A DNA stretch of 64,000 nucleotides, from assembly GCA_026713705.1 (NCBI GenBank), contig JAPONY010000055.1, forward strand, positions 3,227 to 67,226, read 5' to 3'. Within the stretch, counting starts at the first letter, position 1; each line of letters begins with the position of its first letter. Positions 8,916 to 58,208 of the stretch are shown one piece after another. A model generated the notes under the pieces. That model did no database searches. It saw only the letters and a list, made by a program, of their open reading frames with translations, and was not told the origin of the DNA. A program made the translations under genes and the position numbers. Origin of the DNA: Gammaproteobacteria bacterium (GTDB lineage Bacteria > Pseudomonadota > Gammaproteobacteria > Poriferisulfidales > Poriferisulfidaceae).

Positions 8916-8930
8916 GGGCGGACGTCTGGA

Positions 8931-9401: not shown

Positions 9402-9432
9402 GTTGTAAAGAAAAACTTTTGAACGATACAGT

Positions 9433-31479: not shown

Positions 31480-33669
31480 ATGCCCGCGGCGATCGAATCG
31501 GCTCCTACGCCGGTTGACGAAACCTCGCCGAACCCTGTTCGCTTCCATACGCTCTGCGATCAGCTTGATCAGTACCTAGAACTGGATCAGGTCCGGCGAG
31601 TCTACCGCGCATATATTTTCAGTGCCGAGCGGCATGCCGAGCAATATCGGCTGTCTGGCGAGCCCTACATTACTCATCCGCTGTCGGTGGCCTGCACCTT
31701 GGCCGACCTGCACCTGGATGGGGACACCATCGTGGCGGCTCTACTGCACGATGTCATCGAAGATACACCGACCGCCCGCGACCAGATCCGGCAGGAATTC
31801 GGCGAGGACGTTGCCCATCTGGTCGACGGGGTCAGCAAGCTAACGCACTTGGACGGCGTCTCGAGAAGCGAGGCGCAGGCGGCCAATTTCAGCAAGATGA
31901 TGCTGGCGATGGTACGCGATATCCGGGTGATGCTGGTCAAGCTGGCCGACCGCCAGCACAACATGCGGACGCTGGATGTGCTGCCGAAAGAAAAACAGCA
32001 GCGCATCGCGCGCGAGACCCTTGAAGTCTATGTACCGATCACGCGTCGCTTGGGCATGAATGTACTCTGCCTGGAGTTGGAAGGGCGCGCCTTCGAGGCG
32101 CTGTACCCGATGCGCAGCCGTGTTCTCAAGGATGCTATCCGGGCGCACCGCGGCCGACAGCACGACCGGGTCGAAAAAATCAGGGGGAACCTGATTCAGC
32201 GCATCGAGGAACGAGGCATCAAGGCGCAGATCGAGGGGCGGGAGAAAAGCGTCTACAGCATCTACAGCAAGATGCGGGAGAAGCGCCTGTCGTTCAACGA
32301 GGTCTTCGATGTCCATGGGTTCCGGGTGATTGTGGATACGGCAGACCAATGCTACCGGGTGTTGGGTATCGTCCATGGCCTGTACAAGCCGCTGCCGGGC
32401 AAGTTCAAGGATTACATCGCAATCCCGAAAGCCAATGGCTACCAGTCCTTGCACACCGCGTTGCAGGGCCCGGACGCGGTGCCCCTGGAGATCCAAGTTC
32501 GCACGCAGGAGATGGAGCAGGTGGCCGAGGGCGGAGTCGCGGCGCACTGGAACTACAAATCCGGCACGAACCTGTCCCTGCCGGCGCACGCCAAGACCTG
32601 GATGCAGAACATTCTGGACATCCGGCGCCTCGCCCCGGATTCCGTGGAGTTTCTGGAACACGTCAAGGTGGATCTCTTCCCTCACGAGGTGTATGTATTC
32701 ACGCCGGCGGGAGACATTCTGCGTCTGCCGCAGGGGTCCACCGCACTGGATTTCGCGTATGCGGTCCATTCCGGTGTCGGCAACGCCTGCGTCGGGGTGA
32801 AAATCGACCGCATTGCCTCTCCCCTGAGTACGGAACTGAGCAGCGGGCAGACGGTCGAGATCCTGACCGCCTCACACGGCAAGCCTTCTCCGGCCTGGCT
32901 GGATTTCGTTGTGACGGCCAAGGCTCGCTCGTCCATTCGCCAGTATCTGAAGGGCTTGAAAGAGGAGCAGGCGGAGGAATTGGGTATGCGGTTGTTGGAC
33001 AAGGCGTTGTCCCGTTTCGAAGAGACCTTCAAGGAACTGCCGGGTGAGCAGGTGTCGGAAGCACTCGAGACCATGGAGGTGGAGGATGCCCAGCAACTGT
33101 TCCGAGACATTGGGCTGGGTCGCCTGATGGCGCCGATCGTGGCGCATCAGTTGATGGGATCGGAGGAATCTCCTCGGCGTTCGACTCGTTGGTTGGGTCG
33201 CATGTTGGGGCGGAAGCAGGATCAGCCCGTTGCGCTGCAGGGCACGGAGGGAATGGCGGTCACGTTTGCCAAATGTTGTCGACCAATCCCGGGCGACACG
33301 GTTACCGGCATCGCTTCGGTCGGACAGGGACTGGTCATCCACCGCGGCAACTGTCCGAACCTCAAACGGTTCCGCAAGTCTCCAGAGCAGTGGATTCCCT
33401 GCGAATGGGCGGAAAAGGTGGATGGCGAGTATCCGGTTTCGATCCGGGTCTCCACCAAGAACCGCCGAGGGTTGCTGGCCCGCGTCGCCGCTGCCATTGC
33501 CGAGGAGGGAAGCAACATCGCGGGGGTCAATCTGGACGAGGCGCAGGGCACGGCCAATATCAACATGAGATTCATCTTGAACGTCCGCGACCGGATTCAT
33601 CTGGCGGCGATCATCAAGGCGGTTCGGCGGCTGCCCGACGTGCACAAGGTAGTGCGCCTGTCGGGTTAG
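31480..33669 (+). CDS. spoT: Bifunctional (p)ppGpp synthetase/hydrolase
   Basis: HD hydrolase domain (HD motif in LLHDVIEDT), synthetase domain, TGS and C-terminal ACT domain. 729 aa; rpoZ-spoT synteny. Confidence 0.9.
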   Translation: MPAAIESAPTPVDETSPNPVRFHTLCDQLDQYLELDQVRRVYRAYIFSAERHAEQYRLSGEPYITHPLSVACTLADLHLDGDTIVAALLHDVIEDTPTARDQIRQEFGEDVAHLVDGVSKLTHLDGVSRSEAQAANFSKMMLAMVRDIRVMLVKLADRQHNMRTLDVLPKEKQQRIARETLEVYVPITRRLGMNVLCLELEGRAFEALYPMRSRVLKDAIRAHRGRQHDRVEKIRGNLIQRIEERGIKAQIEGREKSVYSIYSKMREKRLSFNEVFDVHGFRVIVDTADQCYRVLGIVHGLYKPLPGKFKDYIAIPKANGYQSLHTALQGPDAVPLEIQVRTQEMEQVAEGGVAAHWNYKSGTNLSLPAHAKTWMQNILDIRRLAPDSVEFLEHVKVDLFPHEVYVFTPAGDILRLPQGSTALDFAYAVHSGVGNACVGVKIDRIASPLSTELSSGQTVEILTASHGKPSPAWLDFVVTAKARSSIRQYLKGLKEEQAEELGMRLLDKALSRFEETFKELPGEQVSEALETMEVEDAQQLFRDIGLGRLMAPIVAHQLMGSEESPRRSTRWLGRMLGRKQDQPVALQGTEGMAVTFAKCCRPIPGDTVTGIASVGQGLVIHRGNCPNLKRFRKSPEQWIPCEWAEKVDGEYPVSIRVSTKNRRGLLARVAAAIAEEGSNIAGVNLDEAQGTANINMRFILNVRDRIHLAAIIKAVRRLPDVHKVVRLSG

Positions 33670-33698
33670 ATGCAAGTCGGGGGGAGCCCTTCCGGCCC

Positions 33699-33820
33699 CA
33701 GACTTTACATAATTTAAAAAACTTTACATTTCTCAAGTCTTTACAAATAAAACCATTTATTATCAAAGACTTGAATGGCAAAAAAATGGTCTAAAAAAAC
33801 TGACCATTTTCCCTTGCATC
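33699..33820 (+). repeat. AT-rich repeated regulatory element, copy A (3x CTTTACA direct repeats + IR AAAATGGTC-N10-GACCATTTT)
   Basis: Three CTTTACA repeats at ~33705, 33724 and 33741, and the inverted repeat at 33785-33812. About 80% identical to copy B at 47478-47600. Confidence 0.7.
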
Positions 33821-33974
33821 GGGGAATGGTTTTCGGGTACAACAGGGGCTTCCGCCATTTCGACCCAGAGGTGTTATATTTATGGCTGCGCCCCATCAGA
33901 CTCCGGAGATTGAATCTTCCGCAACCGCTTCGGTCTCCAAGCGTCCAGGCATTCGGGAGCACAGGAAACATCCT

Positions 33975-34313
33975 ATGTTCGATACCCTGCAAGTCACCAA
34001 CGACCTGAAAAGAGGCGGACTGGCTGAACCGCAAGCAGAGGCGATAGTCTCCGCGTTCAGCACCGTCTTCCAGGACATGGTGACGAAAGACGACCTGAAG
34101 GCTGCCTTGAAAGACTACCCGACGAGAGAAGAATTGAGGGCCGAAGTGAAGGCCGCTTTGGAAGGCTATCCGACGAGGGCCGGAATAGAGAAAGGATTCA
34201 AGGATTTCTATCGCCGGTTTGTGTATATTGCAGTCGCTATTGTTGGCGTCAATGCGACGGTCACGGCCATGTTGTTCGGGGCTTTCAGCATGATGATCCG
34301 CTCTCATCTGTGA
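33975..34313 (+). CDS. DUF1640-like (CCDC90-like) small coiled-coil protein with C-terminal TM helix, paralog A
   Basis: MFDTLQVTNDLKRGGLAEPQAEAIVSAF...TKDDLKAALKDYPTREELRAEVKAALEGYPT, with a hydrophobic C-terminus. Paralogous to 34786..35013 and 59967..60479. The track start at 33882 lies over a non-coding block that is conserved upstream of paralog B, so the ATG at 33975 is preferred. Confidence 0.55.
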   Translation: MFDTLQVTNDLKRGGLAEPQAEAIVSAFSTVFQDMVTKDDLKAALKDYPTREELRAEVKAALEGYPTRAGIEKGFKDFYRRFVYIAVAIVGVNATVTAMLFGAFSMMIRSHL

Positions 34314-34320
34314 GCGTGAT

Positions 34321-34501
34321 AGACGTCATTGCCGAGGAAGGGAGCAGCATTGCGGGGGTTAATCTGGACGAGGCGCAGGGCACGGCCAATATCAACATGA
34401 GATTCATCCTGAACGTCCGCGACCGGATTCATCTGGCGGCGATCATCAAGGCGGTCCGGCGGCTGCCCGACGTGCACAAGGTGGTGCGCTTGTCGGGTTA
34501 G
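34321..34501 (+). pseudogene. Duplicated fragment of spoT 3' end (ACT domain, last ~60 codons)
   Basis: Near-identical direct repeat of 33490-33669 at nucleotide level. Encodes IAEEGSSIAGVNLDEAQGTANINMRFILNVRDRIHLAAIIKAVRRLPDVHKVVRLSG, which equals the SpoT C-terminus. There is no upstream gene body. Confidence 0.8.
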
Positions 34502-34505
34502 GTGT

Positions 34506-34640
34506 AAATTGCAAGAAAGAAACTTTACATTTCTAAAACCATTACAAATAAAAATTTTATTTATCAATATTTTATATTAGATAAAGGCAGTTATAAAAAC
34601 CGGCTGTTTTTCCTAAAATTGAAAGAAAGTTATACATCAC
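34506..34640 (+). repeat. Degenerate copy C of the AT-rich repeated element
   Basis: AAACTTTACATTTCTAAAACCATTACAAATAAAA...AACCGGCTGTTTTTCC aligns with copy A, including a decayed inverted repeat. The downstream block CAGAGGTGTTATATTTAT (34662-34679) is also shared with copy A (33866-33883). Confidence 0.5.
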
Positions 34641-34785
34641 AATAGATGTGCCAACTATTCTAATCAGAGGTGTTATATTTATAGTTAGCCCTACTAGGTT
34701 CTGAAGGCGGAACCTGTCGAACCTATAATTTCAATTGCTTTGGTTTCGAATGACTAGACATACGGAATCATAAGGAGAAATTACT

Positions 34786-35013
34786 GTGCTCAACATTTAC
34801 CGGGTTGCCTATGATCTGGAAAAAAGTGGGTTCACCGAGTCGCAGGCCGAAGCGGTGGTCTCCGCCTTGAAGGACATTCAGAAAGACCGCCCAACAAAAC
34901 TCGACGTAAAGGCTGATCTGGCTACTTTAGAGGCGCGCCTGATTTTTGGGTTTGGTTTAGCGATAGTCATCCTCGAGACTGTGGTTATCGCTTTGGTTAT
35001 CAGGGTGTTGTGA
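34786..35013 (+). CDS. DUF1640-like small coiled-coil/TM protein, paralog B (GTG start)
   Basis: SD AAGGAG 8 nt upstream of the GTG. YDLEKSGFTESQAEAVVSAL...PTKLDVKADLATLEARL with a C-terminal TM helix. 75 aa. Confidence 0.5.
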   Translation: MLNIYRVAYDLEKSGFTESQAEAVVSALKDIQKDRPTKLDVKADLATLEARLIFGFGLAIVILETVVIALVIRVL

Positions 35014-35081
35014 GGGTCTGAAGAAAGAAGCGCAAATCGCTTCTTGCGTATAATCCCGGCGAATCTTCTACTTTCTAGCGA

Positions 35082-35468
35082 ATGGCCACCGAACCGATCA
35101 GCACGCCCGATGCGCCCGACGCCATCGGCACCTACTCCCAGGCAGTCCGAAGCGGAGACTGGGTATTTCTGTCCGGCCAGATTCCCTTGGAGCCTCAGAC
35201 CATGCAAATGGTCGAAGGGGATATGCGTGCACAGATCCAAAGAGTTTTCGATAATCTCGGCGCGGTTGCTAGTGCCAGCGGCGGCAGTCTAGCTGATTGC
35301 GTCAAGCTGACGGTATACCTGACCGACCTGAGTCATTTTCCGCTGGTCAACGAAGTGATGGCGGAATATTTCTCTGAGCCGTACCCGGCACGTGCGGCAG
35401 TGGGCGTGGCGGCGCTCCCGAAGGGTGCGGCGGTCGAGATGGATGCGATTCTGAATTTAGGCGCCTGA
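35082..35468 (+). CDS. ridA: RidA family reactive-intermediate deaminase (YjgF/TdcF-like)
   Basis: 128 aa. Conserved YjgF core (GTYSQAV...VFLSGQIP..., C-terminal [22 protein letters not shown]). Confidence 0.8.
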
Positions 35469-35479
35469 CTCCGGCCCGG

Positions 35480-37588
35480 ATGACCCGGACTGATTCACCC
35501 GCTCCCGACCCAGCAGTAGCGGCGCTTCGGGCATTGTCCGGCGTCGGTCCCCGAGTATGCGAGAAGCTTGCGCGGTTGGGCATTACCCGGATCGATCACC
35601 TGCTGCTGCATCTGCCCCGGACTTACGAGGATCGGACCCAGTTGGTGTCTCTGGATGCCCTGCGCCCGGGCATCCGCTGCATGGTCGAGGGAATTGTGCA
35701 GGATGCCCGCGTGGAGTTCTACGGTGGGCGCAGGTTGCGGGTGAAACTGGCCGACGACTCTCCGGGCATGCTGGAGTTGTGCTTCATGCGCTTCAGCACT
35801 TTCCAGCAGGAACAACTAACCCCGGGGGCACGGGTGCGTTGTTTCGGGGAAGTCAAGCTATGGCGCCGCTCTTTCCGGATGTTCCATCCGGAGTACGAAC
35901 CTGTCACGCCCGACACTTCTCCCGGTGCTGCAGCTAGTCTGACTCCGGTGTATCCAGCGACGGAGGGGCTCGCGCAGATCTCCCTGCGCAAATTGATTCG
36001 CCGCGCATTGGAGTGGGCCGAAGCCCATCCGGCGCAACTGGAACACCCGGCTTGGGAAGATCTGTTCAGAAGTCAGGGTCTGCCCGGCTTCACCGAAGCG
36101 CTGCGTCACCTCCATGAGCCGGATGTAGGACTGAGTGTGGAGAGTCTGCTTTCGGAATCCGAGCCGGCCCGCCAACGGCTGATCGTGGAGGAACTGGCCG
36201 CATACCATCTAAGCTTTATCCGTTTGCGCAACCGGGCGGAACAACGGCCGGCAGATTCGTTTTCAGGTGGCGACGAACTGATTCGCCGGTTTCTGGAACG
36301 CCTGCCTTTCCCGCTGACCCGGGCGCAGGAGAGGGTGATCGAGGAAATCCGGCAGGATTTGGCCCGGAACCATCCCATGATGCGTCTGCTGCAGGGTGAT
36401 GTTGGCTCCGGCAAGACCATCGTGGCGCTGGTTGCCGCGTTGTGCGTCACCGCCTCGGATGCACAGGTGGCGGTGATGGCCCCCACTGAACTGTTGGCCG
36501 AGCAGCATTACCGCAGTTTTTGGGAATGGTTGTTTCCGTTGAACATCCCGGTGGCGTTCTTGTCGAGCAGCCAGACCCGCAAGAAGAGAGAAGAAGAAAA
36601 AGCGCGCATCCGAAGCCACGAGGCCCGCATCGTAATCGGCACGCATGCCCTGATCCAGGAGGATGTGAGTTTCGATCGACTAGGCCTGCTGATCATCGAC
36701 GAGCAGCATCGGTTCGGGGTTCATCAGCGTTTGGCCCTGCGGCGCAAGGGAGAAGATGAAAAAACCTATCCACACCAGTTGATCATGACGGCGACTCCGA
36801 TCCCGCGCAGCCTGGCCATGACGTTCTACGCTGATTTGGATGCATCGATCCTGGATGAGATGCCTCCGGGCCGCAAGCCGGTTCAGACTGCCGTCATGGC
36901 GGAAGATCGACGGGATGAACTGATGCAACGGATCCGGGAGGCCTGTCAGGAGGGGCGACAGGCGTATTGGGTCTGCACGCTGGTGGAAGAATCCGAGGTG
37001 TTGCAGTGCGAGGCGGCGGAAAGCACCTGGGGTCGGCTTCGCCAGGCGTTGCCCGAGCTTGAGGTGGGGCTGATACACGGCCGGATGAAAGCGCTGGACA
37101 AAGATCAGGTCATGCAGCGTTTCAAGAATGGGGAGGTCCAGCTTCTGGTGGCGACCACGGTCATCGAAGTGGGCGTCGACGTCCCGAATGCCTCGCTGAT
37201 GGTGATCGAGAACGCGGAGCGCCTGGGGTTGGCGCAGCTGCATCAACTTCGCGGGCGGGTCGGGCGGAGTTCCGAACAGAGCAGTTGCGTGTTGCTGTAC
37301 AAGTCGCCGTTGTCGGAAAATGCCCGTACTCGCATCCAGATTATGCGGGAGACGACCGATGGGTTCGAGATTGCGCGGCGGGACCTTCGTCTGCGCGGAC
37401 CAGGCCAGTTGCTCGGGGCTCGTCAGGCTGGAGAAATGGTGTTTCGGGTGGCAGATCTTTCGCGGGATGAGCAACAGTTGCAGCGGGTGCAGCGAATCGC
37501 CCAAGACTTCCTCCGGAAGGATCCGGAAGCAGTGGAACCGATCATGGAACGCTGGCTCGGGGATTCCCGGAACCTTGGGTCTGTCTGA
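35480..37588 (+). CDS. recG: ATP-dependent DNA helicase RecG
   Basis: Wedge domain, then SF2 helicase motifs (GDVGSGKT, DEQHRFG, TATPIPR, QLHQLRGRVGR). 702 aa; downstream of spoT as in many gammaproteobacteria. Confidence 0.9.
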   Translation: MTRTDSPAPDPAVAALRALSGVGPRVCEKLARLGITRIDHLLLHLPRTYEDRTQLVSLDALRPGIRCMVEGIVQDARVEFYGGRRLRVKLADDSPGMLELCFMRFSTFQQEQLTPGARVRCFGEVKLWRRSFRMFHPEYEPVTPDTSPGAAASLTPVYPATEGLAQISLRKLIRRALEWAEAHPAQLEHPAWEDLFRSQGLPGFTEALRHLHEPDVGLSVESLLSESEPARQRLIVEELAAYHLSFIRLRNRAEQRPADSFSGGDELIRRFLERLPFPLTRAQERVIEEIRQDLARNHPMMRLLQGDVGSGKTIVALVAALCVTASDAQVAVMAPTELLAEQHYRSFWEWLFPLNIPVAFLSSSQTRKKREEEKARIRSHEARIVIGTHALIQEDVSFDRLGLLIIDEQHRFGVHQRLALRRKGEDEKTYPHQLIMTATPIPRSLAMTFYADLDASILDEMPPGRKPVQTAVMAEDRRDELMQRIREACQEGRQAYWVCTLVEESEVLQCEAAESTWGRLRQALPELEVGLIHGRMKALDKDQVMQRFKNGEVQLLVATTVIEVGVDVPNASLMVIENAERLGLAQLHQLRGRVGRSSEQSSCVLLYKSPLSENARTRIQIMRETTDGFEIARRDLRLRGPGQLLGARQAGEMVFRVADLSRDEQQLQRVQRIAQDFLRKDPEAVEPIMERWLGDSRNLGSV

Positions 37589-37606
37589 GGTCGAGGGTGT
37601 GTGGCC

Positions 37607-38389
37607 CTAGAAGAGGCAGCAGGCTAGTTCAAACTTGACTTCTTGAGTGGTCTGGGCAGGTCGCTGATCCAGGTCGCTTCCCTCGCGGAACACGATGCTG
37701 AAAGAGCGCTTCCCGATGCTGATTTCCGGGTAGAACTCCGAGTCCACCGGCATGCGAATCCGTATCATCTGATGAATTCGGCCGGGATCCAGTATCTGCT
37801 CGAACCAGCCCTCTTTCGCGATTTCGGGAGCGAACGAAGCGCTATTCCGGACCATCTCCAACACGGTTCGCGCAATCTGGATGATGGGGGCGAACGGCTC
37901 GTACCACTGTTGCAGTTGGGCCGCATGATCGGCCTGCCGGCTGGCCAGCCAGTTGTGGTACAGCGGAATGTCGGTTTCACTGGTGCAGCCGGGCATGCGG
38001 ATGCGCTGGCTGACAGTGTTGAGCATGTCGTGCCGGGTCAGGTGCTGGTGCACGGGATACTGCAAGCCATGTGCGTCATCGCGCAGGTTCTGATGCAGTT
38101 CGATGATTTCCTTGAGGAGATCCAGGTTCGCGTTGTCGGATGAACTCAACATTTCGAGCCAAGCGAGGCGTTGATCCAGCTCGCGTATCAGTTCGACCTT
38201 AATGTTGTGCCGGCTGATTAGGCTGACGAATTCCAGCAGAGTGGCGACGGTGGAGCGGGTTCCCCACAACGAAGGCTGAGCATAGTGATATTCGAACTGT
38301 CGCGCCAGAAAGTCGATTCGCAGAAACGTGCGCATCCGCTCGTTGACGGCCTGCTCGTAGATCAAAGGGGAAGGGGAGGTGTCGTTCAT
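37607..38389 (-). CDS. zapD: Cell division protein ZapD
   Basis: 260 aa DUF1342/ZapD-like sequence. It sits downstream of coaE in the coaE-zapD arrangement. Confidence 0.7.
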   Translation of the reverse strand: MNDTSPSPLIYEQAVNERMRTFLRIDFLARQFEYHYAQPSLWGTRSTVATLLEFVSLISRHNIKVELIRELDQRLAWLEMLSSSDNANLDLLKEIIELHQNLRDDAHGLQYPVHQHLTRHDMLNTVSQRIRMPGCTSETDIPLYHNWLASRQADHAAQLQQWYEPFAPIIQIARTVLEMVRNSASFAPEIAKEGWFEQILDPGRIHQMIRIRMPVDSEFYPEISIGKRSFSIVFREGSDLDQRPAQTTQEVKFELACCLF

Positions 38390-38976
38390 GCTGCCATGTA
38401 TTGCTGGTGCAACGCGTCCACCGCCCTGTCCAAGGCATCCATGCTCGCCGCATTTTCGATCACGTCGTCGGCATGCCGCAGACGTTCGGCCGCCGACAAT
38501 TGGGCGGCCAGGACAGCATCGGCCTGCTTATTATCCATTTTAGGAAAACGTTCCTGCAACCGTGCACGCTGCAGGTTCTCAGGGCAATTCACGACCAGAA
38601 TCCGATCCACGTCATCCAGCCAACCCGCCTCGATCAGCAGGGGGACCACCGCAATCGCATAAGACCCTTTCTGCTGCGTGAACCAGGTTCGGATGGCGGT
38701 CCGCACAGGGGGATGCAACAGGGACTCAAGATCCTGGCGCAGGGCTGCATCGCGGAAGAGGCGCGTACGCAGCAGTGCTCGATTCAGGCTGCCGTCGTCT
38801 TGCAGTATTTCCGGGCCGGCCCGCTCGACCACTTCCCCGAGAAGCGGGCCGTCTGGAGCCGTCAACTCCCGCACGATATCGTCGGCATCGATAATGGGCA
38901 CGCCTCGTTCTTCAAAGCACTGGGCAGCCTGCGATTTCCCGCAGGCGATGCCTCCTGTCATGCCGATTCTGATCAT
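38386..38976 (-). CDS. coaE: Dephospho-CoA kinase
   Basis: P-loop GMTGGIACGKS at the N-terminus. 196 aa. pilD-coaE synteny. Confidence 0.9.
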   Translation of the reverse strand: MIRIGMTGGIACGKSQAAQCFEERGVPIIDADDIVRELTAPDGPLLGEVVERAGPEILQDDGSLNRALLRTRLFRDAALRQDLESLLHPPVRTAIRTWFTQQKGSYAIAVVPLLIEAGWLDDVDRILVVNCPENLQRARLQERFPKMDNKQADAVLAAQLSAAERLRHADDVIENAASMDALDRAVDALHQQYMAA

Positions 38977-38986
38977 GTGCAGGTTC

Positions 38987-39781
38987 TCAAAGCCCAGACC
39001 AGCCGACCAGTGACCAGGCGGAATCCCTCCAGATCAGGAAGCCGAACAGCGACAGCGACAAAGCGGGACCAAAGGGCAGTGCACGTTGGGCACGGCCCCA
39101 TGCCCGCCGGGTCAGCCATAGCAGGAGGGTCAGGATTGAAGCACCCAAGGCCACCCAAGGAAGTATCATCCAGCCAAGCCAAGCCCCGCACACGGCAAAC
39201 ATCTTGAAATCACCGTAACCCATGCCGGCCTCTTTCTTGAAAAAGTAGAACAGGTGATTCAGCAACCACAGCGACAGGTAGCCCGCTACGGCTCCGATGA
39301 CCGCTTCGTGCAATGGCGCAAACAGTTCGTACGTGTTCACCAGCAGTCCCAGCCATAGCAGCGGATAGACAAGCAAATCCGGCAACAATTGTGTCTGCCA
39401 GTCGATCAAGGCAAGTGCCAGAAGTCCCCAACCCAGTATGGCATAGGCGCTGGCTTCCGGGAGGCTGTCCGTGCTCAGGAGCGCACCCATCGCGAGCAAT
39501 CCTGCCACCAGTTCCAGGAGAGGGTATTGCAACGAAATGGGGACGTTGCAGAAGGCGCAACGGCCCCGCAGGGCGAGGTATCCGAGGATTGGAATCAGAT
39601 GGGGGAGGCGGATCGTCCGATGGCAATGGGGACAGTGAGAGCGTGGAGACCACAGGGTTAATTCGGGGTTTTCTCCACGCACCATGACAGGGAGCCGGAA
39701 TACTATCACGTTCAGAAAACTGCCCACGGCAGTCCCGACGACAAATGCGATACAGAGCCAGAAGATCTCGGAGTGTGGCAT
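38987..39781 (-). CDS. pilD: Prepilin peptidase / N-methyltransferase (A24 family)
   Basis: Tetra-Cys motif CPHCHRTI...CAFCNVPI. Multiple TM helices with conserved catalytic Asp regions. 264 aa. Confidence 0.85.
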   Translation of the reverse strand: MPHSEIFWLCIAFVVGTAVGSFLNVIVFRLPVMVRGENPELTLWSPRSHCPHCHRTIRLPHLIPILGYLALRGRCAFCNVPISLQYPLLELVAGLLAMGALLSTDSLPEASAYAILGWGLLALALIDWQTQLLPDLLVYPLLWLGLLVNTYELFAPLHEAVIGAVAGYLSLWLLNHLFYFFKKEAGMGYGDFKMFAVCGAWLGWMILPWVALGASILTLLLWLTRRAWGRAQRALPFGPALSLSLFGFLIWRDSAWSLVGWSGL

Positions 39782-39812
39782 CGATGTGACCGAGGGCTTG
39801 TGGTGTTATTGT

Positions 39813-40991
39813 ATGGGGATTATGAGAGGCAGTATTACTCTCCTTTGTGGAGAGACGGCCCCAGGCTTATTTTTACGGTTGTTCTGCGCCGGGGTGATCC
39901 TGCTTGCGGCGGGGATGTTCGCGCCGAAGGCTTTGATGGCAGAGTCGGAGGGTCCGGCGTATCGGATCGAAACTCTAGAGGGAGGACTGGAATACCCATG
40001 GAGCTTGGTACAACTGCCGGACGGTTCCCTGCTGATTACGGAAAAACCCGGACGCCTGCTCCACCTGGATGCCGACTTCGCCGGTCGCGATCTCATCGAA
40101 GGGGTGCCGGAGGTGGCTTGGGTCGGGCAGGGAGGGCTTTTGGATGTGGTCCTGCATCCGGAATACGGGCAGGCGGACAATCGCTGGATCTACCTCAGCT
40201 ATAGCAAATCCTGCTCTGCGGGATTCACAACGGCGCTGAGCCGTTACCGCCTGCAAGGCAATCGACTTGAGAACGGCCAGCTGCTGTTCGAGGCTCGTCC
40301 GTGCGGGGGATTGACCTGGCATTTCGGGGGGCGGCTGGCATTCGATGCGAACGGACACCTGTTTCTGACTATTGGGGATCGGGGTGAGCGCGAGAATGCG
40401 CAGGCATTAGACAGCCACTGGGGCAAATTGATTCGCCTGCATGCGGACGGGCGGATCCCGGCGGACAATCCGTTTACCGGGAACTCCGATGCCTTGCCGG
40501 AAGTGTATTCCTATGGCCACCGAAACCCGCAGGGACTTGCGTGGAACCCTTTCGATGAAAAGCTCTGGTTGCACGAGCACGGCCCGAAAGGCGGAGACGA
40601 ACTGAACCGGATTCGCGCGGGAGCCAATTACGGCTGGCCCCAGGTGACGCATGGACGCGAGTACACCGGCGGGATCATCAGCGAGCAGACGCATGCGCCG
40701 GGGATGGAGCCGCCCGTGCAACACTGGACGCCGTCAATCGCCCCGTCGGGGTTTGCGGTCTACGACGGCGCCTCTTTTGCCGAATGGCGCGGAGATTTCC
40801 TGGTGGGTGCACTGAAGTTCCGAAGCGTGTACCGAGTACAGTTGCGAGCGGAGGGCGGGGTGCATGAGCAGGTCCTGCCGGAACCCAAGGAGCACCGCAT
40901 CCGCGATGTGCGGGTGCTGGCGGACGGCCTGATTTACTTGCTGACGGACGATTCGAATGGGCAACTGCTGAGATTGGTACCCAACAATTAA
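39813..40991 (+). CDS. PQQ-dependent soluble sugar (glucose/sorbosone) dehydrogenase, YliI-like
   Basis: Signal peptide, then beta-propeller sGDH motifs (PWSLVQLPDGSLLITEKPGRL, HFGGRLAFD, YSYGHRNPQGLAWNP). Start taken at an internal ATG, since the track start lies inside the pilD upstream region. Confidence 0.7.
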   Translation: MGIMRGSITLLCGETAPGLFLRLFCAGVILLAAGMFAPKALMAESEGPAYRIETLEGGLEYPWSLVQLPDGSLLITEKPGRLLHLDADFAGRDLIEGVPEVAWVGQGGLLDVVLHPEYGQADNRWIYLSYSKSCSAGFTTALSRYRLQGNRLENGQLLFEARPCGGLTWHFGGRLAFDANGHLFLTIGDRGERENAQALDSHWGKLIRLHADGRIPADNPFTGNSDALPEVYSYGHRNPQGLAWNPFDEKLWLHEHGPKGGDELNRIRAGANYGWPQVTHGREYTGGIISEQTHAPGMEPPVQHWTPSIAPSGFAVYDGASFAEWRGDFLVGALKFRSVYRVQLRAEGGVHEQVLPEPKEHRIRDVRVLADGLIYLLTDDSNGQLLRLVPNN

Positions 40992-41073: not shown

Positions 41074-41328
41074 ATGGCACGCACGACAACAATGACAGTT
41101 CGCCTCAGTGGCGCACTCAGTGATTTCGTTTCAGCGAATGTCAGTGAGACTGGATCTTACGAGAATGTAAGTGAGTACGTTCGCGACTTGATTCGACGTG
41201 ATAAAGAGCGGGTGGAGCTGGAGGCCTTTCAACGCCTCAAAGCTGAACTGGAACACGCTTTTGCAGCACCAGATAGTTCATTTCACCCTCTTTCGGCCTC
41301 GGATGTCATCGCACGGAACAAAACCTAG
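41074..41328 (+). CDS. parD: Type II antitoxin, ParD family (ribbon-helix-helix)
   Basis: 84 aa; MARTTTMTVRLSGALSDFV...SEYVRDLIRRDKER is typical of ParD. It lies immediately upstream of the toxin gene. Confidence 0.75.
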   Translation: MARTTTMTVRLSGALSDFVSANVSETGSYENVSEYVRDLIRRDKERVELEAFQRLKAELEHAFAAPDSSFHPLSASDVIARNKT

Positions 41329-41336
41329 GCTTGTGC

Positions 41337-41663
41337 ATGGCGTCGATCCGCGTTCAAGAGGCGGCTTCTCTCCGCATTGATGAGATTTATCGATATTCCC
41401 AAGACAAGTGGGGGAGCGATCAGGCTGATGCTTATATCATGGGATTGTTCGAGGTATTTGCCGCAATTGCGGCGGGTAGCGTTCTGTCCCGCCCGATCCC
41501 GGCAGAATTTGGAATAGATGGTTATTTTTATAGATATGAGAGACACTATATCTATTGGAAGAAACTAAATAATGGAGACGTTGGCATCGTTACTATTCTG
41601 CATGAGCGTATGCACCAGATCGACAGGTTTCAAGAAGATTTTAAAAATGAATTTTCCGCATAA
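41337..41663 (+). CDS. parE: Type II toxin, ParE/RelE family
   Basis: ~108 aa; IDEIYRYSQDKWGSDQADAYIMGLFEVF...YIYWKKLNNGDVGIVTILHERMHQ is typical of ParE plasmid-stabilisation toxins. Its start sits 9 nt after the parD stop. Confidence 0.7.
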   Translation: MASIRVQEAASLRIDEIYRYSQDKWGSDQADAYIMGLFEVFAAIAAGSVLSRPIPAEFGIDGYFYRYERHYIYWKKLNNGDVGIVTILHERMHQIDRFQEDFKNEFSA

Positions 41664-46355: not shown

Positions 46356-46383
46356 AATGGTCTAAAAAATCTGACCATTTTTT
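46356..46383 (+). repeat. Partial copy D of the repeated element (inverted-repeat part only)
   Basis: AAAATGGTC-TAAAAAATCT-GACCATTTT lies 60 nt upstream of the first T4SS-module gene. Confidence 0.6.
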
Positions 46384-46446: not shown

Positions 46447-47097
46447 ATGAATTTCCAAAAATCATCCCGGACACGCTGGCGGGTGTGGTTGGCAGGCGGA
46501 GTCTTTTCTCTGTTATTACTGGCTGCGCTTGTCCACGAGATGTTACGAGGTTCGAACGAGACATTTGCATTTTCTGATCCAGGTGTTCAGCTACTTCAGC
46601 CAACAGAGCTTCCGTCGGCGGCAAGTGCAATTCCCGAAATCGATATGAAACTGTTGTCGGAATCTTTGGCACAGACTCTGGACAACCGTCTTAACAAATG
46701 GGATCAACGCAACCTTGAAGTGTTCGAAAAAACCTTTCTGTCTCAGATGCGAACATTCGAAAAATGGAGGGAAGGGCTTGACGAGAAACTCAAAACACAA
46801 TCCTCCAGGCTACAGGGCATGGACCAGAAGCTGCACTTGCTTGAGCGTGGCATGAACCGGTTGCTAGGTTCCCTTGAAGACGAAGCGATTCAGGTGTCCA
46901 TGGAGCCTGAGTTCATTTTTCGGGGCATTGAAGTCTGGCATGGGCAAGCGTATGCGCTGCTTGAGCACCAAGGGCGGATTTTGCCAGCACGGCAGGGAGA
47001 CTCTCGGCTAGGCTGGAGAATCAACGCCATTGACCGCGATAATCAGAAATTACACATCAGCGACGGTATGACGAAACTTATCCTGGAGGAACAATGA
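46447..47097 (+). CDS. ICE/T4SS-module protein: N-terminal TM anchor, coiled coil, C-terminal beta-rich domain (function unknown)
   Basis: 216 aa. First gene of the co-directional cluster. Its stop overlaps the next start (ATGA). Confidence 0.45.
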   Translation: MNFQKSSRTRWRVWLAGGVFSLLLLAALVHEMLRGSNETFAFSDPGVQLLQPTELPSAASAIPEIDMKLLSESLAQTLDNRLNKWDQRNLEVFEKTFLSQMRTFEKWREGLDEKLKTQSSRLQGMDQKLHLLERGMNRLLGSLEDEAIQVSMEPEFIFRGIEVWHGQAYALLEHQGRILPARQGDSRLGWRINAIDRDNQKLHISDGMTKLILEEQ

Positions 47098-47480
47098 GCA
47101 GGGTGTGGCGCCGGGAAGCCGGATGGTTGATAGGGCTTACGGCCCTAGCTGGAGTTGCGGCATCCGTAATTCTTGATGTGCAGGCGGCGCGCGAAGAAGC
47201 GAGTCAGTGGCAGAAAACCGACCTCCGTGTGCTTCGCTGGCTGGAATTGAGCGAGGAGGAATGGCGTCAATATCAATCGTGGCGCTCCTTGATTGGCAAG
47301 CCACTGGCCGAAATGACTCCATACGAGGTCTTAGGGATTTATGCGGATGATGCAGAACAGCGGCGCCGGTTTGCTAGAGAGAATGCCCGTTTTATGCTTG
47401 ATTTCTACCGACGAACTATGGAATTTGAACAGATTTACCGAGAAGAATTGGGAAAGCTTTCGGGCGAACAAAGGCCTTAA
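47094..47480 (+). CDS. ICE/T4SS-module small protein with N-terminal TM helix
   Basis: 128 aa. Translationally coupled to the upstream gene. Confidence 0.4.
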   Translation: MSRVWRREAGWLIGLTALAGVAASVILDVQAAREEASQWQKTDLRVLRWLELSEEEWRQYQSWRSLIGKPLAEMTPYEVLGIYADDAEQRRRFARENARFMLDFYRRTMEFEQIYREELGKLSGEQRP

Positions 47481-47600
47481 ACTTTACATAAGATAAAAAA
47501 CTTTACATTTCCCAAAGCTTTACAGATAAATTTATTATTTATCAGTATGTTAATAAGCAAATAAATGGTCAAAAAAAACTGACCATTTTTCCTTGCTTTC
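47478..47600 (+). repeat. AT-rich repeated regulatory element, copy B (3x CTTTACA + IR AAATGGTC-N10-GACCATTTT)
   Basis: AACTTTACATAAGATAAAAAACTTTACATTTCCCAAAGCTTTACAGATAAA...AAATGGTCAAAAAAAACTGACCATTTTTCCTTGC. Collinear with copy A at 33699-33820. Confidence 0.7.
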
Positions 47601-47651
47601 TGGCAATGAGTGTTAGAGACTGCACAGGCGGTAATTACTCCCACGGATGGG

Positions 47652-47676
47652 GGGCCGTGTAGGGCCGCCCAGCCTT
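47652..47676 (+). promoter_or_regulatory. GC-rich hairpin in 5' leader of the main T4SS operon
   Basis: GGGCCGCCC-agcctta-GGGCGGCCC, a perfect 9-bp stem 35 nt upstream of the 47711 start. No U-tract follows. Confidence 0.35.
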
Positions 47677-47710
47677 AGGGCGGCCCTCAACTCCGCCCGG
47701 AGGCCTAAGA

Positions 47711-48124
47711 ATGAGACATGCTGAATGGCTGATTGGCACAACTGCGGCATTACTAGTGGCAGGGTGCGAGATGTTGCACTATGCGGTTCCGGTTTCGCAG
47801 CCCCGGGAACTGAGTCACATCCCGCGGCCAGGGTTGATTGACCATTCGGCATCTTCAAGGCTGACTCCCGACTATCTAGTGCGCCCGGACATGGGCGAGA
47901 GGCAGGTTCTTGGGCAACTTCTGCACGAATTGCAATTAGCCCGACACCTGATTGACGATGCTTACGAGCGCCGCGATGAGCGTGCTCGAGTGCGGGTGGA
48001 CTACGTGCGCTTAGCGGACGAATTCGACCGGATCGTGATCGGTTTGAGGCGCACTCTAACGGTGGCCGAAACGACACCGCGCGATCGCATGGACATCACC
48101 GGAGACTATCAATTGTATGAGTGA
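47711..48124 (+). CDS. ICE RAQPRD-family conjugative-transfer lipoprotein
   Basis: Lipobox (LLVAGC). Pattern L..L..ARHLIDDAYERRDERARVRVDY.RLADEFDRIVIGLRR....ETTPRDRMDITGDY matches the RAQPRD family consensus layout. Confidence 0.55.
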   Translation: MRHAEWLIGTTAALLVAGCEMLHYAVPVSQPRELSHIPRPGLIDHSASSRLTPDYLVRPDMGERQVLGQLLHELQLARHLIDDAYERRDERARVRVDYVRLADEFDRIVIGLRRTLTVAETTPRDRMDITGDYQLYE

Positions 48125-48356
48125 TTCCATGCTTGGTCAGTTCGAGGTAACTTCCGGCATCTCGGGCGAAGTTCTGGCGGAAATAACTGCTGCGACTTGC
48201 CTGCTAGTCGTGACTCTTTGGGTGTCGTGGGTGGCCGTCTCTAGTCTGCGGCAGTTACGTGACGAGACCTTAGCAGTCGGCGAAGTCGCCACTCGAATCC
48301 TGTGGGCCGGCTTGATGTTTTGCATGGTGGTCGCCCTGATTGCCTTTGTGGAGTAA
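48117..48356 (+). CDS. ICE small inner-membrane protein (PFL_4701/TIGR03758-like)
   Basis: 79 aa, two TM helices. Position and size match the small membrane proteins of GI-type T4SS. Confidence 0.4.
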   Translation: MSDSMLGQFEVTSGISGEVLAEITAATCLLVVTLWVSWVAVSSLRQLRDETLAVGEVATRILWAGLMFCMVVALIAFVE

Positions 48357-48359
48357 ATC

Positions 48360-48710
48360 ATGAGGAAACTTATTCTTGTTTTAGCGTGTGCTCTAGCGCT
48401 TCATCCGCGCTGGGGAATTGCTGTAAACACACTGGATTTGCCTGTCTTCGACGGTATTGCCGCTGATGCGACCGATCCCTTTTCATTTATTAAGTCCGTT
48501 GCGATCACAGGTATGGCTTTGGTGTTCGGCTTTCTTGTGGTGGGTGCCTTCCTCGGCTACGGCGGCGGTCTGATCGCAAAACTTAACCAAGCGCGCGTTA
48601 AGGGGGACTGGGGAAGCCTTGGAATTTACTTGGGCACCGGTTTGCTGGTCGTGATCATCATTGCCCTGATGGGCTACATGGGGGGGCAGATTCTGTCCGA
48701 CTTCGAATGA
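48360..48710 (+). CDS. ICE pilin-like membrane protein (TrbC/VirB2-like; PFL_4702/TIGR03745-like)
   Basis: Signal peptide plus two hydrophobic helices with a Gly-rich region (AFLGYGGGLIAKL). 116 aa. Confidence 0.45.
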   Translation: MRKLILVLACALALHPRWGIAVNTLDLPVFDGIAADATDPFSFIKSVAITGMALVFGFLVVGAFLGYGGGLIAKLNQARVKGDWGSLGIYLGTGLLVVIIIALMGYMGGQILSDFE

Positions 48711-49030
48711 CGCGCCCAGCTTCTCCACTCGGTTTTGAGCCGCCGATGTTTCGAGGGCTCAGTGGCACCGAATTGACCGCGGCAATAGTGTTATCGGTGG
48801 CACCAGGCACGGTGGGGGCAGGCATATTTTGTTTGTGGACTGGTTCCCTGTTGTGGGCTCTTCCGGTGCTGGTGCTGAATGCTTTCATCACGGTGTTGCT
48901 TGCAGGCACAGCGCTGAGGCACCTCAAGCGGAACCGGCCGCCCAACTGTTATCTGCAACGCGTTGCTCGCCACTTCAGACGAAGCGCCAATATCATCTGG
49001 CGGGAAGGATCCTGGAGGGTGGAGCGGTGA
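48707..49030 (+). CDS. ICE membrane protein (VirB3-like; TIGR03750-like)
   Basis: 107 aa, two TM helices. Translationally coupled on both sides. Confidence 0.4.
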   Translation: MTRPASPLGFEPPMFRGLSGTELTAAIVLSVAPGTVGAGIFCLWTGSLLWALPVLVLNAFITVLLAGTALRHLKRNRPPNCYLQRVARHFRRSANIIWREGSWRVER

Positions 49031-49659
49031 CACCTTGTAGCTTCCGTGACGAAGAACTGAACCGCCGTCGCTATGTCCGGGCACTGCAGGTCGGTCTGGT
49101 GTTTCTGGCAGTGTCACAGTTACTTGCTTACGCCGGCTGGTGGCATGCATCCGGGACGCAACGCCTGAGTCTGCCGCCCCAATTGCGCTATGGCGCAACT
49201 CTCCATGGTGATGTGGTGCATCCATGGGAAGTGTATGTTTTCGCCGGATACATCCACCAGCAGATTAACAATTGGACCGACAATGGCGCCATTGATAATT
49301 TGGAAAATATTCAACGCTTGGCGGCATTTCTCAGTCCAGACTACCGCTTCTGGCTGACACGTGAACATCAGCGCCATGAGGCTCAGTTCCGAAACCGACA
49401 ACGCAGTGTTAGCCCGGTTCTCGGGAGTTACAGCAATGAATCCGTACATCCATTAGGACAAGACACTTGGCAGGTCATTTTGGATGTTCGCCTCCGGGAC
49501 TATCTGGAGGATCAAATCTACAAAGATATTGATGTCCGTTATTTCTTGGAGGTCGTATTGCTGGATGCTGATCCCGAAACCAATGAGTGGGGATTGGTTC
49601 TGAATCGGCAGTACCAACCTCCTGAACGTTTACGTTCTCACCTGTCGGCTCTCGAATGA
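49027..49659 (+). CDS. ICE protein (PFL_4703/TIGR03746-like), N-terminal TM
   Basis: GTG start overlapping the upstream stop (GTGA); the track ORF from 48829 overlaps the previous gene. 210 aa. Confidence 0.4.
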   Translation: MTPCSFRDEELNRRRYVRALQVGLVFLAVSQLLAYAGWWHASGTQRLSLPPQLRYGATLHGDVVHPWEVYVFAGYIHQQINNWTDNGAIDNLENIQRLAAFLSPDYRFWLTREHQRHEAQFRNRQRSVSPVLGSYSNESVHPLGQDTWQVILDVRLRDYLEDQIYKDIDVRYFLEVVLLDADPETNEWGLVLNRQYQPPERLRSHLSALE

Positions 49660-50420
49660 GGTGGTTTCTAGCACTGCTGCTGTGCTTGGCGTCATCGACG
49701 GTTCTGGCGTCGTCGTCGCGGGTCTACACTGGTGATCCGCTTCCGGTACTGCTGCCGCTTGGTAAAGAGCGGCGAATCGAAATCGAGGGCGCACAGGAAG
49801 TTCGTGTCGGATTGTCTGCGGTACTGAAGGAAAGCTTGCGTGCCGAAAGCGCTGGTCCTCATGTTTGGTTAACTGCCCGGGATGCTTTGTCCCTGCAGCG
49901 TGTATACCTCAAAACCGAGACCGAGCTGTTGGTGTTGAAAGTTCGGACGGATCCCCAGGCACCGACGGAGCCGCTGAGCATCACGGTAGATCTGAAGGGC
50001 TCCAGATCTTCTCCTTCGTTTTCACCGGACAGACAGCCAAGCTATGTGGCGCTGATGCGTTATGCCATCCAAGCCTTGTATGCGCCCGACTACCGTGAAG
50101 ATCTGGTTTCCAAAATCCGGCAGGTTCTTATCGATGAACAGCCGGTGGCCCTGTTTCGTTGTCGGGAAACATATCCGTCCGCGTGTGGGGATGCGGTCGA
50201 GTCTATTCCCCATGCTGCATGGGAGGCACTTCCTTATTACATAACCGCAGTCACGGTACGCAATCGCCTGCCTGAATCCCTGACGCTTGACCCTCGCGAT
50301 CTCCGCGGGCGATTTGCGGCATCCGCCATCGTACACCCTCGTTTGGAGGCATCTGGAAGCGTCCGAGATACGACGACTGTGGTGCTGATTTCGAGTATCC
50401 CGTTTGAGCACGCCCAATGA
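49656..50420 (+). CDS. ICE periplasmic protein with signal peptide (PFL_4704/TIGR03749-like; VirB9-like role possible)
   Basis: Signal peptide MRWFLALLLCLASSTVLA. 254 aa. Coupled starts on both sides. Confidence 0.4.
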   Translation: MRWFLALLLCLASSTVLASSSRVYTGDPLPVLLPLGKERRIEIEGAQEVRVGLSAVLKESLRAESAGPHVWLTARDALSLQRVYLKTETELLVLKVRTDPQAPTEPLSITVDLKGSRSSPSFSPDRQPSYVALMRYAIQALYAPDYREDLVSKIRQVLIDEQPVALFRCRETYPSACGDAVESIPHAAWEALPYYITAVTVRNRLPESLTLDPRDLRGRFAASAIVHPRLEASGSVRDTTTVVLISSIPFEHAQ

Positions 50421-51649
50421 ACGCGCGCAGCCCGCTGCTTAAGTTGCTTGCCGGGGTTGCCTTGTTGCTTGCACTATCGGTGACATTCCTGTCCACTTCT
50501 CCGCCACCGGCTGAGCCGGAGATTCTAGTTCCCTCCAGTCGAGAACTAGATGAAGCCGCTGAGGAAGTCCGAGCCGCGGCGACCGGCATGCGCCGCTTGG
50601 AGCAAAAGATTTCAGATCAGGCGGAACAAATCCGGGAACTGGACGAATCACTTGTTGAGTTGTCCTCCCGCGTTGAACAACTGGTGCAACACAGGCGGCG
50701 GCAAGAGGAGGCGCAGACATCCAAATCATCTCCACTCTCATCGGGCGAGGCACCCGAGAAAGGGGAAGCATTTGATCTGGACACCTTGACCTATGAGCCT
50801 CCATCCAACACGGAGGCCGAGCTTTCGACGCCTCAATTTGACTTGCCACTGACTTGGGTAGAGCCGATTGATAGTGACAGGGCGTTACAGCGCAATTTGG
50901 CGGCAGTTTCGGGCAATCTGGTCGCGGGGGAAGAGACCGATAAACCACCAAGGTTCTACATCCCGCCGTCTATCCTGTCCGGATTGTCCCTGACTGCTTT
51001 GGTTGGACGCATCCCGCGTGGCGGGGCCGTGCAGGACCCGTGGCCATTCGTCGTGGTGAGCCAAGCCGACAATTTGACGGCAAACGGCGTGCGCCTTCCT
51101 CAATTGCGTGGCATCCTGTGGCGTGGCGTCGTCCGTGGCGACGCAGTGCTGTCCTGTGCAAGCGCGTCCATCCGGAGCCTGGTCTATGTGTTCGATGATG
51201 GAACATTTCATGTTGCAAAGGCGCCAGCGCAGGAGGGTTTCGGCTATCTAGCCGATAAGTCTGGCAATCCCTGCCTGGTGGGAGAGATTCATACCACGGC
51301 CCCAGAGGATATGGGCACGCATCTGTTGGCCGGTGTTCTGGCCGGCATGGGTGGGGCTTTTGCTGAGTCTCAGGTGCGGCGCAATGTCTCCGGGGGAACC
51401 GAAACGTCTCAAGTGGAGGGAGATGCTTTCAGCTACCTGCTAGGCCAGACGGTTCAAGGTGCAGCCTCCGCATACGGCGACTATCTGCTGCGGTTTGCCA
51501 ACGATACTTGGGATGCAGTGGTAGTCCCGGCCGGTCGCGAAGTGGACATCCATATCACGGACAGCATCCCTGTCATCCATTCACCAACCCGGACGATCTA
51601 TGACGATCCGATTCCTTCCTTGGCTGTGTCTTTTGGCGGTCTGGATTAG
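50417..51649 (+). CDS. ICE protein (PFL_4705/TIGR03752-like; VirB10-like topology: N-terminal TM, coiled coil, C-terminal beta domain)
   Basis: 410 aa. Has a TM helix, a coiled-coil segment (EEVRAAATGMRRLEQKISDQAEQIRELDESLVELSSRVEQL), a Pro/Ser-rich linker and a conserved C-terminal domain. Confidence 0.45.
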   Translation: MNARSPLLKLLAGVALLLALSVTFLSTSPPPAEPEILVPSSRELDEAAEEVRAAATGMRRLEQKISDQAEQIRELDESLVELSSRVEQLVQHRRRQEEAQTSKSSPLSSGEAPEKGEAFDLDTLTYEPPSNTEAELSTPQFDLPLTWVEPIDSDRALQRNLAAVSGNLVAGEETDKPPRFYIPPSILSGLSLTALVGRIPRGGAVQDPWPFVVVSQADNLTANGVRLPQLRGILWRGVVRGDAVLSCASASIRSLVYVFDDGTFHVAKAPAQEGFGYLADKSGNPCLVGEIHTTAPEDMGTHLLAGVLAGMGGAFAESQVRRNVSGGTETSQVEGDAFSYLLGQTVQGAASAYGDYLLRFANDTWDAVVVPAGREVDIHITDSIPVIHSPTRTIYDDPIPSLAVSFGGLD

Positions 51650-51953: not shown

Positions 51954-52079
51954 AAAGTCAAGAAAAATGAATAACAAAAAATCATCACACCCAAGGAATA
52001 GGGATCCTAGAAGAAACGGTTATTGCCCTGTTTGTCTTCGATGTGGCTTTGCCACTGTGTTTCTGCCGAGGACGGGGCC

Positions 52080-53473: not shown

Positions 53474-53533
53474 GGAGGAACCATCGTGGGCAAAAAGAAA
53501 AAATCAAAAAAGAAAGTCACTCTGGAACGCATC

Positions 53534-58203: not shown

Positions 58204-58208
58204 CGGGA

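Follow-up and report, generated by a model that had tools for sequence, protein, structure and literature searches.

Duplicated spoT 3' end at the spoT-ridA locus

The spoT-ridA locus of a gammaproteobacterial genome (GenBank assembly GCA_026713705.1) was analyzed in a 64,000-nucleotide (nt) stretch of contig JAPONY010000055.1 (positions 3,227 to 67,226 of the forward strand), here called the window, whose coordinates are used throughout unless a relative is named. The window contains an intact spoT gene and a second, truncated copy of the spoT 3' end, and each of these ends is followed by a cassette consisting of an upstream element and one small CCDC90-like (DUF1640) gene, ahead of ridA. The arrangement probably arose by ancestral tandem segmental duplication at a hypervariable slot, followed by homologous exchange between strains, and is not the footprint of a site-specific integration event. 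One genome per species was scanned with SpoT, which placed the window in "Candidatus Porisulfidus," sulfur-oxidizing sponge symbionts with chromosomes of 1.6 to 2.0 Mb. Papers on "Porisulfidus" and on "DUF1640" contained nothing about this locus.

The spoT gene (31480 to 33669, forward strand) codes for 729 amino acids (aa) that are 100% identical to the SpoT of relative L001, and the Pfam domains of its orthologues agree with this assignment. Its 3' end (copy 1, 33495 to 33675, forward strand; the last 58 codons, the stop codon, and 6 nt) is repeated in direct orientation at 34327 to 34507 (copy 2), with a length of 181 nt, 94% identity, and an offset of 832 nt. A preliminary description of the sequence had reported this repeat at 33490 to 33669 and 34321 to 34500, coordinates that are off by only a few bases; the alignment of the two regions that it suggested was carried out by repeat search and with MAFFT, both of which recovered the 181-nt repeat. 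In-register similarity may begin slightly upstream, at GCGT (33482 and 34314), immediately 3' of the stop codon of DUFA, the first of the two CCDC90-like genes. Apart from this repeat, the longest direct repeats within the 8-kb region were blocks of 51 and 25 nt belonging to the same cassette unit, and all others were ≤22 nt; because the remaining repeats were far shorter, a chance origin of the 181-nt repeat was excluded.

The interval between the copies measures 651 nt (33676 to 34326), matching the roughly 650 bp described previously, and holds one upstream element (element A) and DUFA. Copy 2 starts 13 nt past the DUFA stop codon (34313) and, as had been claimed, lacks a spoT body upstream. 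Weaker collinearity continues past copy 2 into the second, related unit that the same description had recognized there, and includes a 51-nt block at 80% identity, an exact 18-nt Shine-Dalgarno (SD) box (33866 and 34665), for which no match was expected by chance, and the 5' part of the gene. The 31 nt after copy 1, comprising a GC-rich stem and the first CTTTACA motif, had no counterpart after copy 2 in the MAFFT alignment. Calculated over 50-nt intervals, identity between the two units was 84 to 98% in the spoT tail and 36 to 64% elsewhere.

The two-copy arrangement is not an assembly artifact and is shared by nine or more independent assemblies. Nine contigs (L068, L070, L072, and L097 to L102, from ENA and JGI assemblies of different samples and assemblers), which span either both copies or the junction and copy 2, were 99.98 to 100% identical to it, and the same junction is present on the long-read chromosome L103. 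That alleles of two strains were collapsed or chimerically joined might be suspected from the short-read Logan contigs L069 and L071, which break inside copy 2, but against this agreement the probability is close to nil.

Normal state of the slot in relatives

Whether spoT is directly followed by ridA elsewhere had been proposed as a check, and the answer differed among relatives: ridA directly follows spoT in the most distant ones (L010 and L011) but not in most others, which have one cassette between the two genes. A single cassette without a second spoT tail was found in L001 to L005, L007, L075, and L089. The cassette of L018 is partly deleted, with a DUFB-like 3' remnant retained, and the slot of L009 holds a distant family member. 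The cassettes of relatives consist of an AT-rich element, with CTTTACA repeats, an invariant ATGGTC-N10-GACCAT palindrome, a TTGCAx-N17/18-TACAAC motif, and a strong SD sequence, and one small gene. Since relatives without the second spoT tail also carry element A and a DUF1640 gene, these are native content of the spoT-ridA slot and not a foreign insert. The alleles at the slot fall into deeply diverged classes (K type, DUFA type, and DUFB type) in strains that are 95 to 99% identical elsewhere. In L006, an ISL3-family transposase gene (461 aa) and a DUF2335 membrane-protein gene lie between spoT and the cassette element (8257 to 10293).

Metagenomes scanned with the leader of the second unit, GAACCTGTCGAACCTATAATTTCAAT, yielded no matches. 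A scan with the CTTTACA pair returned 18 loci, six of which were Porisulfidus-like and contained the palindrome (L080, L084, L085, L089, and L092 among them); the remaining loci were dismissed as chance matches in AT-rich DNA.

Origin of the two units and of the junction

The two units of the window are each collinear with a single-copy locus of a relative. Up to position 34137, the window is 99.1% identical to L001, which has a type-A single cassette, whereas 34321 to 40012 is collinear with L094 (96.2% identity overall; 734 of 761 positions, or 96.5%, over 34321 to 35081). In L094, the upstream region of the second unit (element C) occurs in the same form, without the GC-rich stem, the first CTTTACA, or the palindrome, directly behind a full-length spoT, together with a 96%-identical DUFB. 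Element C thus marks a second, long-established allele class, of which it forms the upstream region; it is not, as the preliminary description had it, a version of element A that decayed after duplication. The absence of the GC-rich hairpin after copy 2, which that description also pointed out, was observed, but it is a trait of the type-C allele, and L103 has the stem after both copies. The membership of unit 2 in this second class would account for the uneven divergence between the units, and the contrast between the spoT tail (84 to 98% identity) and the rest (36 to 64%) fits swapped alleles better than decay in place.

The join between the units, junction J (34311 to 34327, forward strand; TGAGCGTGATAGACGTC), has the DUFA stop codon at its left edge. 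A homologue (98%) of the 63-residue open reading frame (ORF) of copy 2 occurs in L103, a 1.63-Mb long-read chromosome in which the junction is identical to that of the window (CATCTGTGAGCGTGATAGACGTCATTGCCGAGG and …CTGTGAGCGTGATAGACGTCATTGCC…). In L103, the second tail is followed by a type-A/K allele, with the GC-rich stem, a complete element A, and a gene of the K type. The two units of L103 are 92.4% identical over 699 nt, with differences evenly spread, and its unit 2 is collinear with the single-copy locus of L001 (848 nt, 96.3% identity). In a third locus, L067, the DUFA unit and the first bases of the junction, TGAGCGTGAT, are retained, and the counterpart of 34321 to 34620 is missing. 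What follows is a C-type leader, of which the 3' half is present, and a DUFB-like gene; the most plausible interpretation of this locus is a derivative with a 300-nt deletion. Junction J would accordingly have arisen once and be identical by descent in the window, L103, and L067. In L002, L003, and L005, GCGT natively follows the stop codon; at the junction it also aligns in register with spoT 33482 to 33485, and it may represent a 4-nt microhomology. The mismatched junction bases give DUFA two further in-frame stop codons (TGA GCG TGA TAG).

A tandem duplication was also found in L008, where units at 8226 to 9037 and 9090 to 9802 are 87 to 91% identical, with even divergence. Unit 1 of this locus ends with the ridA promoter and approximately 20 nt of ridA and contains no spoT tail. 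The L008 duplication is independent of that in the window, although in the same slot, and its different endpoints argue against a targeted site. The first gene copy of L008 shows an internal repeat expansion.

The tandem cassette duplication that had been offered as an alternative to integration agrees with these comparisons: the copies are collinear and head to tail (tail, upstream element, SD box, and gene, each present twice), a single novel junction joins them, this junction is shared with L103 and partly kept in L067, each copy is collinear with a single-copy relative, and the original spoT is intact. Divergence between copies is even in L103 and L008 and uneven in the window, so later allele exchange is needed in the latter. 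The identity of the flanks to relatives is mosaic along the locus, which shows that exchange between strains is common here.

Proposed history of the locus

The segment that was duplicated would begin near codon 668 of spoT and end a few bases beyond the stop codon of the downstream CCDC90-like gene. One illegitimate join, at most guided by microhomology, would have occurred in the ancestor of several closely related "Candidatus Porisulfidus" strains and, to judge from the shared junctions, would have produced junction J and a locus in the order spoT, element A, DUFA, J, spoT tail, cassette, and ridA, with spoT left intact. Homologous recombination between coexisting strains would then have swapped parts of the array, as collinearity with single-copy alleles suggests, with spoT, the two spoT tails (about 175 to 188 nt), and ridA/recG as arms; it would have placed a type-C allele (element C and DUFB) behind the second tail in the window and a type-A/K allele in L103. 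Tail-tail recombination or illegitimate deletion may subsequently collapse the array, the 300-nt deletion of L067 being a probable instance. The net effect would be the gain by a strain of a second, divergent tail-anchored coiled-coil protein at the hypervariable slot. The occurrence of the DUFA type only as the first unit of arrays, and never as a single cassette, fits tail-tail recombination that regenerates L001-like or L094-like single cassettes.

Several observations weigh against this history. The 3' end of DUFA (34138 to 34313) was found only in tandem-bearing genomes; BLAST searches against all fetched loci and the window found no source outside them, and similarity to the C terminus of a paralog at the rph locus was seen at the protein level only, so that an event more complex than simple duplication may lie at the origin. 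At the junction, the 9 nt that follow GCGT resemble neither parent closely, and the L067 deletion has its left end at most a few nucleotides from the junction, an unexplained coincidence (approximately 2% by position). L001, the closest relative, is without the tandem, which requires loss or recombination. The data may fit either order of exchange, replacement of unit 2 or movement of unit 1 and its tail into other backgrounds. Finally, the genomes of relatives were viewed in part, and a recombinase may be encoded at a distance.

Alternative explanations

In the first of the two readings put forward in the preliminary description, an integrase-driven element had inserted into the 3' end of spoT, the two tails being attL and attR around a remnant cassette array. 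Direct repeats of a gene 3' end do bracket AT-rich DNA here (40% GC versus 59% for the window), and the spoT-ridA site of L010 and L011 is empty, but this origin is highly improbable. No recombinase or integrase domain was detected by Pfam and NCBIfam scans in 38 ORFs across the 64-kb window, which represent most of its large ORFs and include a type IV secretion block at 46.4 to 59.8 kb that resembles an integrative and conjugative element (ICE); the search for a recombinase targeting spoT that had been proposed was thus negative among these ORFs. The bracketed DNA is not absent from relatives without the repeats but native to their slot, and the DNA after copy 2 is the native allele of L094. 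The left edge of the repeat lies inside the ACT domain, neither inverted repeats nor a conserved core was found at the unit ends, and the boundaries were not reused in the independent L008 event, which captured the ridA 5' end. Comparison of the 1.6-kb region with plasmid and phage collections gave no match on such mobile DNA, no relatives of DUFA were found in viral contigs, and the whole window contained no tRNA or transfer-messenger RNA (tmRNA) gene that could serve as an attachment site (ARAGORN) and no RNA family at Rfam gathering thresholds. An integron array is not indicated either, as the tested ORFs include no integrase and the cassette ends lack shared imperfect inverted repeats.

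Mobility without a recombinase is another alternative. The 832-nt module (spoT tail, element A, and DUFA, closed at J) could be excised as a circle by tail-tail recombination and reintegrate by a RecA-dependent single crossover at a spoT 3' end, or it could move as linear DNA with spoT and the tail as arms, the tail providing a built-in homologous "att" site; the two forms taken together are considered unlikely. One and the same junction, with its DUFA unit, does precede resident alleles of two kinds (type A/K in L103, type C in the window), the DUFA type lacks a single-cassette form, a deletion between copies 1 and 2 would yield exactly L094-like or L001-like loci, and the type IV secretion block in the same genome could aid DNA exchange. 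The same structures, however, are expected from replacement of unit 2 by double crossover, with no circle required, and neither a circular form nor copies at other loci or on mobile DNA were found; the module is known from three lineages only. If the module were mobile, a segment of approximately 0.8 to 1.0 kb would spread between coresident symbiont strains into any spoT 3' end and would stack a second envelope-protein allele ahead of the resident one. A further possibility, assessed as very unlikely, is a one-step unequal crossover that joined the sequence just after DUFA on a type-A chromosome to the interior of spoT on a type-C chromosome, without a previous duplication of a single allele. 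It would explain why the window combines units of two allele classes, both of them collinear with the locus of a single-copy relative, but the identical junction in L103 is followed by a type-A/K unit, and later allele exchange would be needed either way. This scenario is a variant of duplication followed by exchange that differs only in the order of events.

Status of the second spoT tail

The tail had been described as encoding the C terminus of the SpoT ACT domain. The ORF of copy 2 (63 codons, 34310 to 34501, forward strand) does match Pfam ACT_4 (PF13291; E = 5.5e-11; 43.4 bits versus a cutoff of 27), but the domain is truncated, with only model positions 22 to 80 of 80 covered and the first approximately 21 positions (the first strand region) missing. 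Its GTG start codon overlaps the DUFA stop codon (GTGA). The coding parts of the two copies (174 nt) differ at nine positions; all nine differences are transitions, and eight are synonymous (P = 0.0016 if all were neutral), the sole exception being an Asn-to-Ser change.

These counts, together with the integrity of the ORF in two lineages (the window type and L103), would be expected if the tail were kept as a small ACT peptide, translationally coupled to DUFA through GTGA and modulating SpoT or another ACT partner, a function given very little credence here. In a comparison with nine spoT alleles, five of the nine differences fell on the lineage of the functional spoT (two specific to the window and three shared with L001). 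Four changes in that first comparison were specific to copy 2 (positions 20, 24, 33, and 82), three of them synonymous (P = 0.13). When L103 was added, position 82 proved to be common to both of its copies, which left three changes specific to copy 2 of the window, one of them nonsynonymous; copy 2 of L103 contains two further synonymous changes. Pooled over both lineages, the copy 2-specific changes are in a ratio of 4 synonymous to 1 nonsynonymous (5:1 with position 82), which favors the peptide, but the counts are too small for a test, and selection on the second tail was not significant after changes were assigned to lineages. Recombination with spoT alleles would, moreover, bring in synonymous variants only, no SD sequence precedes the GTG, and the ORF is deleted in L067. 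The second tail is therefore treated as a truncated ACT-domain pseudogene fragment, presumably a passenger of the duplication.

Two other candidates were rejected. A diversity-generating retroelement with template and variable repeats does not fit the differences between the copies, which are transitions of all kinds and not adenine specific. The 83-aa stand-alone ACT ORF of L104 (3062 to 5252) belongs to a split spoT (641 and 83 aa) on a 9× long-read contig and was attributed to a frameshift or sequencing error, with no duplication.

Cassette elements, cassette proteins, and neighboring genes

The GC-rich stem 3' of the spoT stop codon (33678 to 33699, forward strand) is present in type-A alleles and absent from type-C alleles. 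Its predicted fold (−14.6 kcal/mol; z = −0.64) was no more stable than those of shuffled sequences, and there is no T run, so that a role as a terminator was not supported. Element A (33700 to 33881, forward strand; 40% GC) consists of blocks conserved in L001 to L008: three CTTTACA motifs (33703, 33722, and 33739), an inverted repeat (33733 to 33774), the ATGGTC-N10-GACCAT palindrome (33786 to 33807), TTGCAT-N18-TACAAC (33814 to 33843), and the SD sequence GAGGTG (33868 to 33873). It is a putative promoter/operator. A sigma-54 promoter was rejected on inspection owing to wrong spacing, and a scan of element A for the sigma-70 consensus found nothing above shuffled sequences. Element C (34508 to 34785, forward strand; 30% GC) has one CTTTACA and one CATTACA (34523 and 34540), a relic SD box with a dead start codon (ATG changed to ATA, then TAG; 34665 to 34682), a TATAAT (34724 to 34729), and the SD sequence AAGGAG (34772 to 34777). 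The right flank common to all alleles (35044 to 35468) comprises a ridA promoter-like sequence (TTGCGTATAAT, 35044 to 35054) and ridA (35082 to 35468), both on the forward strand.

DUFA (33882 to 34313, forward strand) encodes a 143-aa CCDC90-like tail-anchored coiled-coil protein, and its 5' 256 nt are as in L001. DUFB (34786 to 35013, forward strand) encodes a 75-aa paralog, the type-C allele; its 96%-identical counterpart in L094 is the sole cassette protein there. Matches of both to PF07798 were below the gathering score of 33.5 and confined to the first approximately 38 model positions (DUFA, E = 2.7e-5, 24.5 bits; DUFB, E = 1.2e-4, 22.4 bits). All 22 aligned relatives matched PF07798 at E ≤ 1e-3, and the family profile matched PDB 6h9m, the solved CCDC90B fragment (E = 2.7e-5). 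The "DUF1640-like" label given earlier is a fair one. The proteins encoded by cassette genes are conserved in their N-terminal region, have variable coiled-coil repeats, and carry a membrane helix at the C terminus. The 14-residue KAALKDYPTKEELR modules of DUFA vary in number, the protein being 211 aa long in L103 (4369 to 5004) and 143 aa in the window.

The region from 46447 to 59780, between pgeF and purH, is an ICE-like type IV secretion block of the mating-pair formation G (MPF-G) class, with TIGR03759-like, RAQPRD, PFL_4703 family, TraC PFL_4706 ATPase, and TraG_N genes; the window yielded neither an integrase nor a relaxase. In metagenome contig LXNI01000965 (L084), the block is conserved at 97%; its GC content is 56%, versus 59% for the window. 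A 79%-identical copy of the cassette upstream element precedes the RAQPRD gene of this block (47473 to 47596), and a palindrome-only copy (46357 to 46378) lies ahead of the gene at 46447. In relatives, the element precedes a second DUF1640 paralog between rph and parE (L073 and L074, at approximately 3820 to 4000; also L080, L085, and L092). The common upstream element may be a shared operator that links DUF1640 genes and type IV secretion operons in one regulon. At the right end of the block lies a third CCDC90-like gene of the window (170 aa, 59967 to 60479; PF07798 below the gathering score), whose coiled-coil part contains 4.5 copies of a 33-nt unit (60166 to 60313); it is followed by a rhodanese/YgaP-like gene (60563 to 61141). 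A ParD/ParE-like toxin-antitoxin pair (41074 to 41663; ParE_toxin, E = 2e-7) has a low third-position GC content (0.46 to 0.47).

Comparison with known systems and significance

Tandem duplications in Salmonella and Escherichia coli arise by unequal or illegitimate recombination, with joins of short or no homology, and are later lost by recombination between the repeats. The locus described here resembles them in its head-to-tail collinear units, its single join with ≤4 nt of microhomology, the truncated gene fragment at the join beside an intact original gene, the deletion derivative in L067, and the independent event with other endpoints in L008. It differs in that the units of the window are now different alleles (36 to 64% identity outside the tail) and in that the array persists across strains differing by 1 to 5%. 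Integrative elements that insert into the 3' ends of tRNA, tmRNA, or protein genes bring a replacement end and so generate attL/attR direct repeats. The direct repeat of a gene 3' end around AT-rich DNA, with the gene intact, is shared with such elements; the lack of a recombinase in the tested ORFs, the native origin of the bracketed DNA, a 181-nt repeat without a defined core, and boundaries not reused in L008 are not. Short one-gene units in tandem at a fixed chromosomal slot recall integron arrays, but no intI or attC was found, a promoter-like region accompanies every unit, and all units belong to a single paralogous family. Hypervariable envelope slots, such as capsule and O-antigen loci and pilin cassettes, are exchanged by homologous recombination in conserved flanks. 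The spoT-ridA slot likewise has conserved flanks (spoT and ridA/recG), deeply diverged alleles, and mosaic flank identity, although each allele is one small gene and the duplicated flank fragment adds an internal homology arm.

The mechanism proposed is an ordinary one, and its value lies in a worked example: AT-rich DNA flanked by direct repeats of a gene 3' end can look like an attL/attR pair although no integrase is involved, and comparison among strains of one population settled the matter. The slot between spoT and ridA in "Candidatus Porisulfidus" emerges as a hypervariable site of active recombination that holds genes for small tail-anchored CCDC90-like proteins, given its allele classes (at least three, deeply diverged), two duplications of independent origin, deletions, and an insertion sequence insertion. 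Studies of envelope variation in sponge symbionts could start from this slot.

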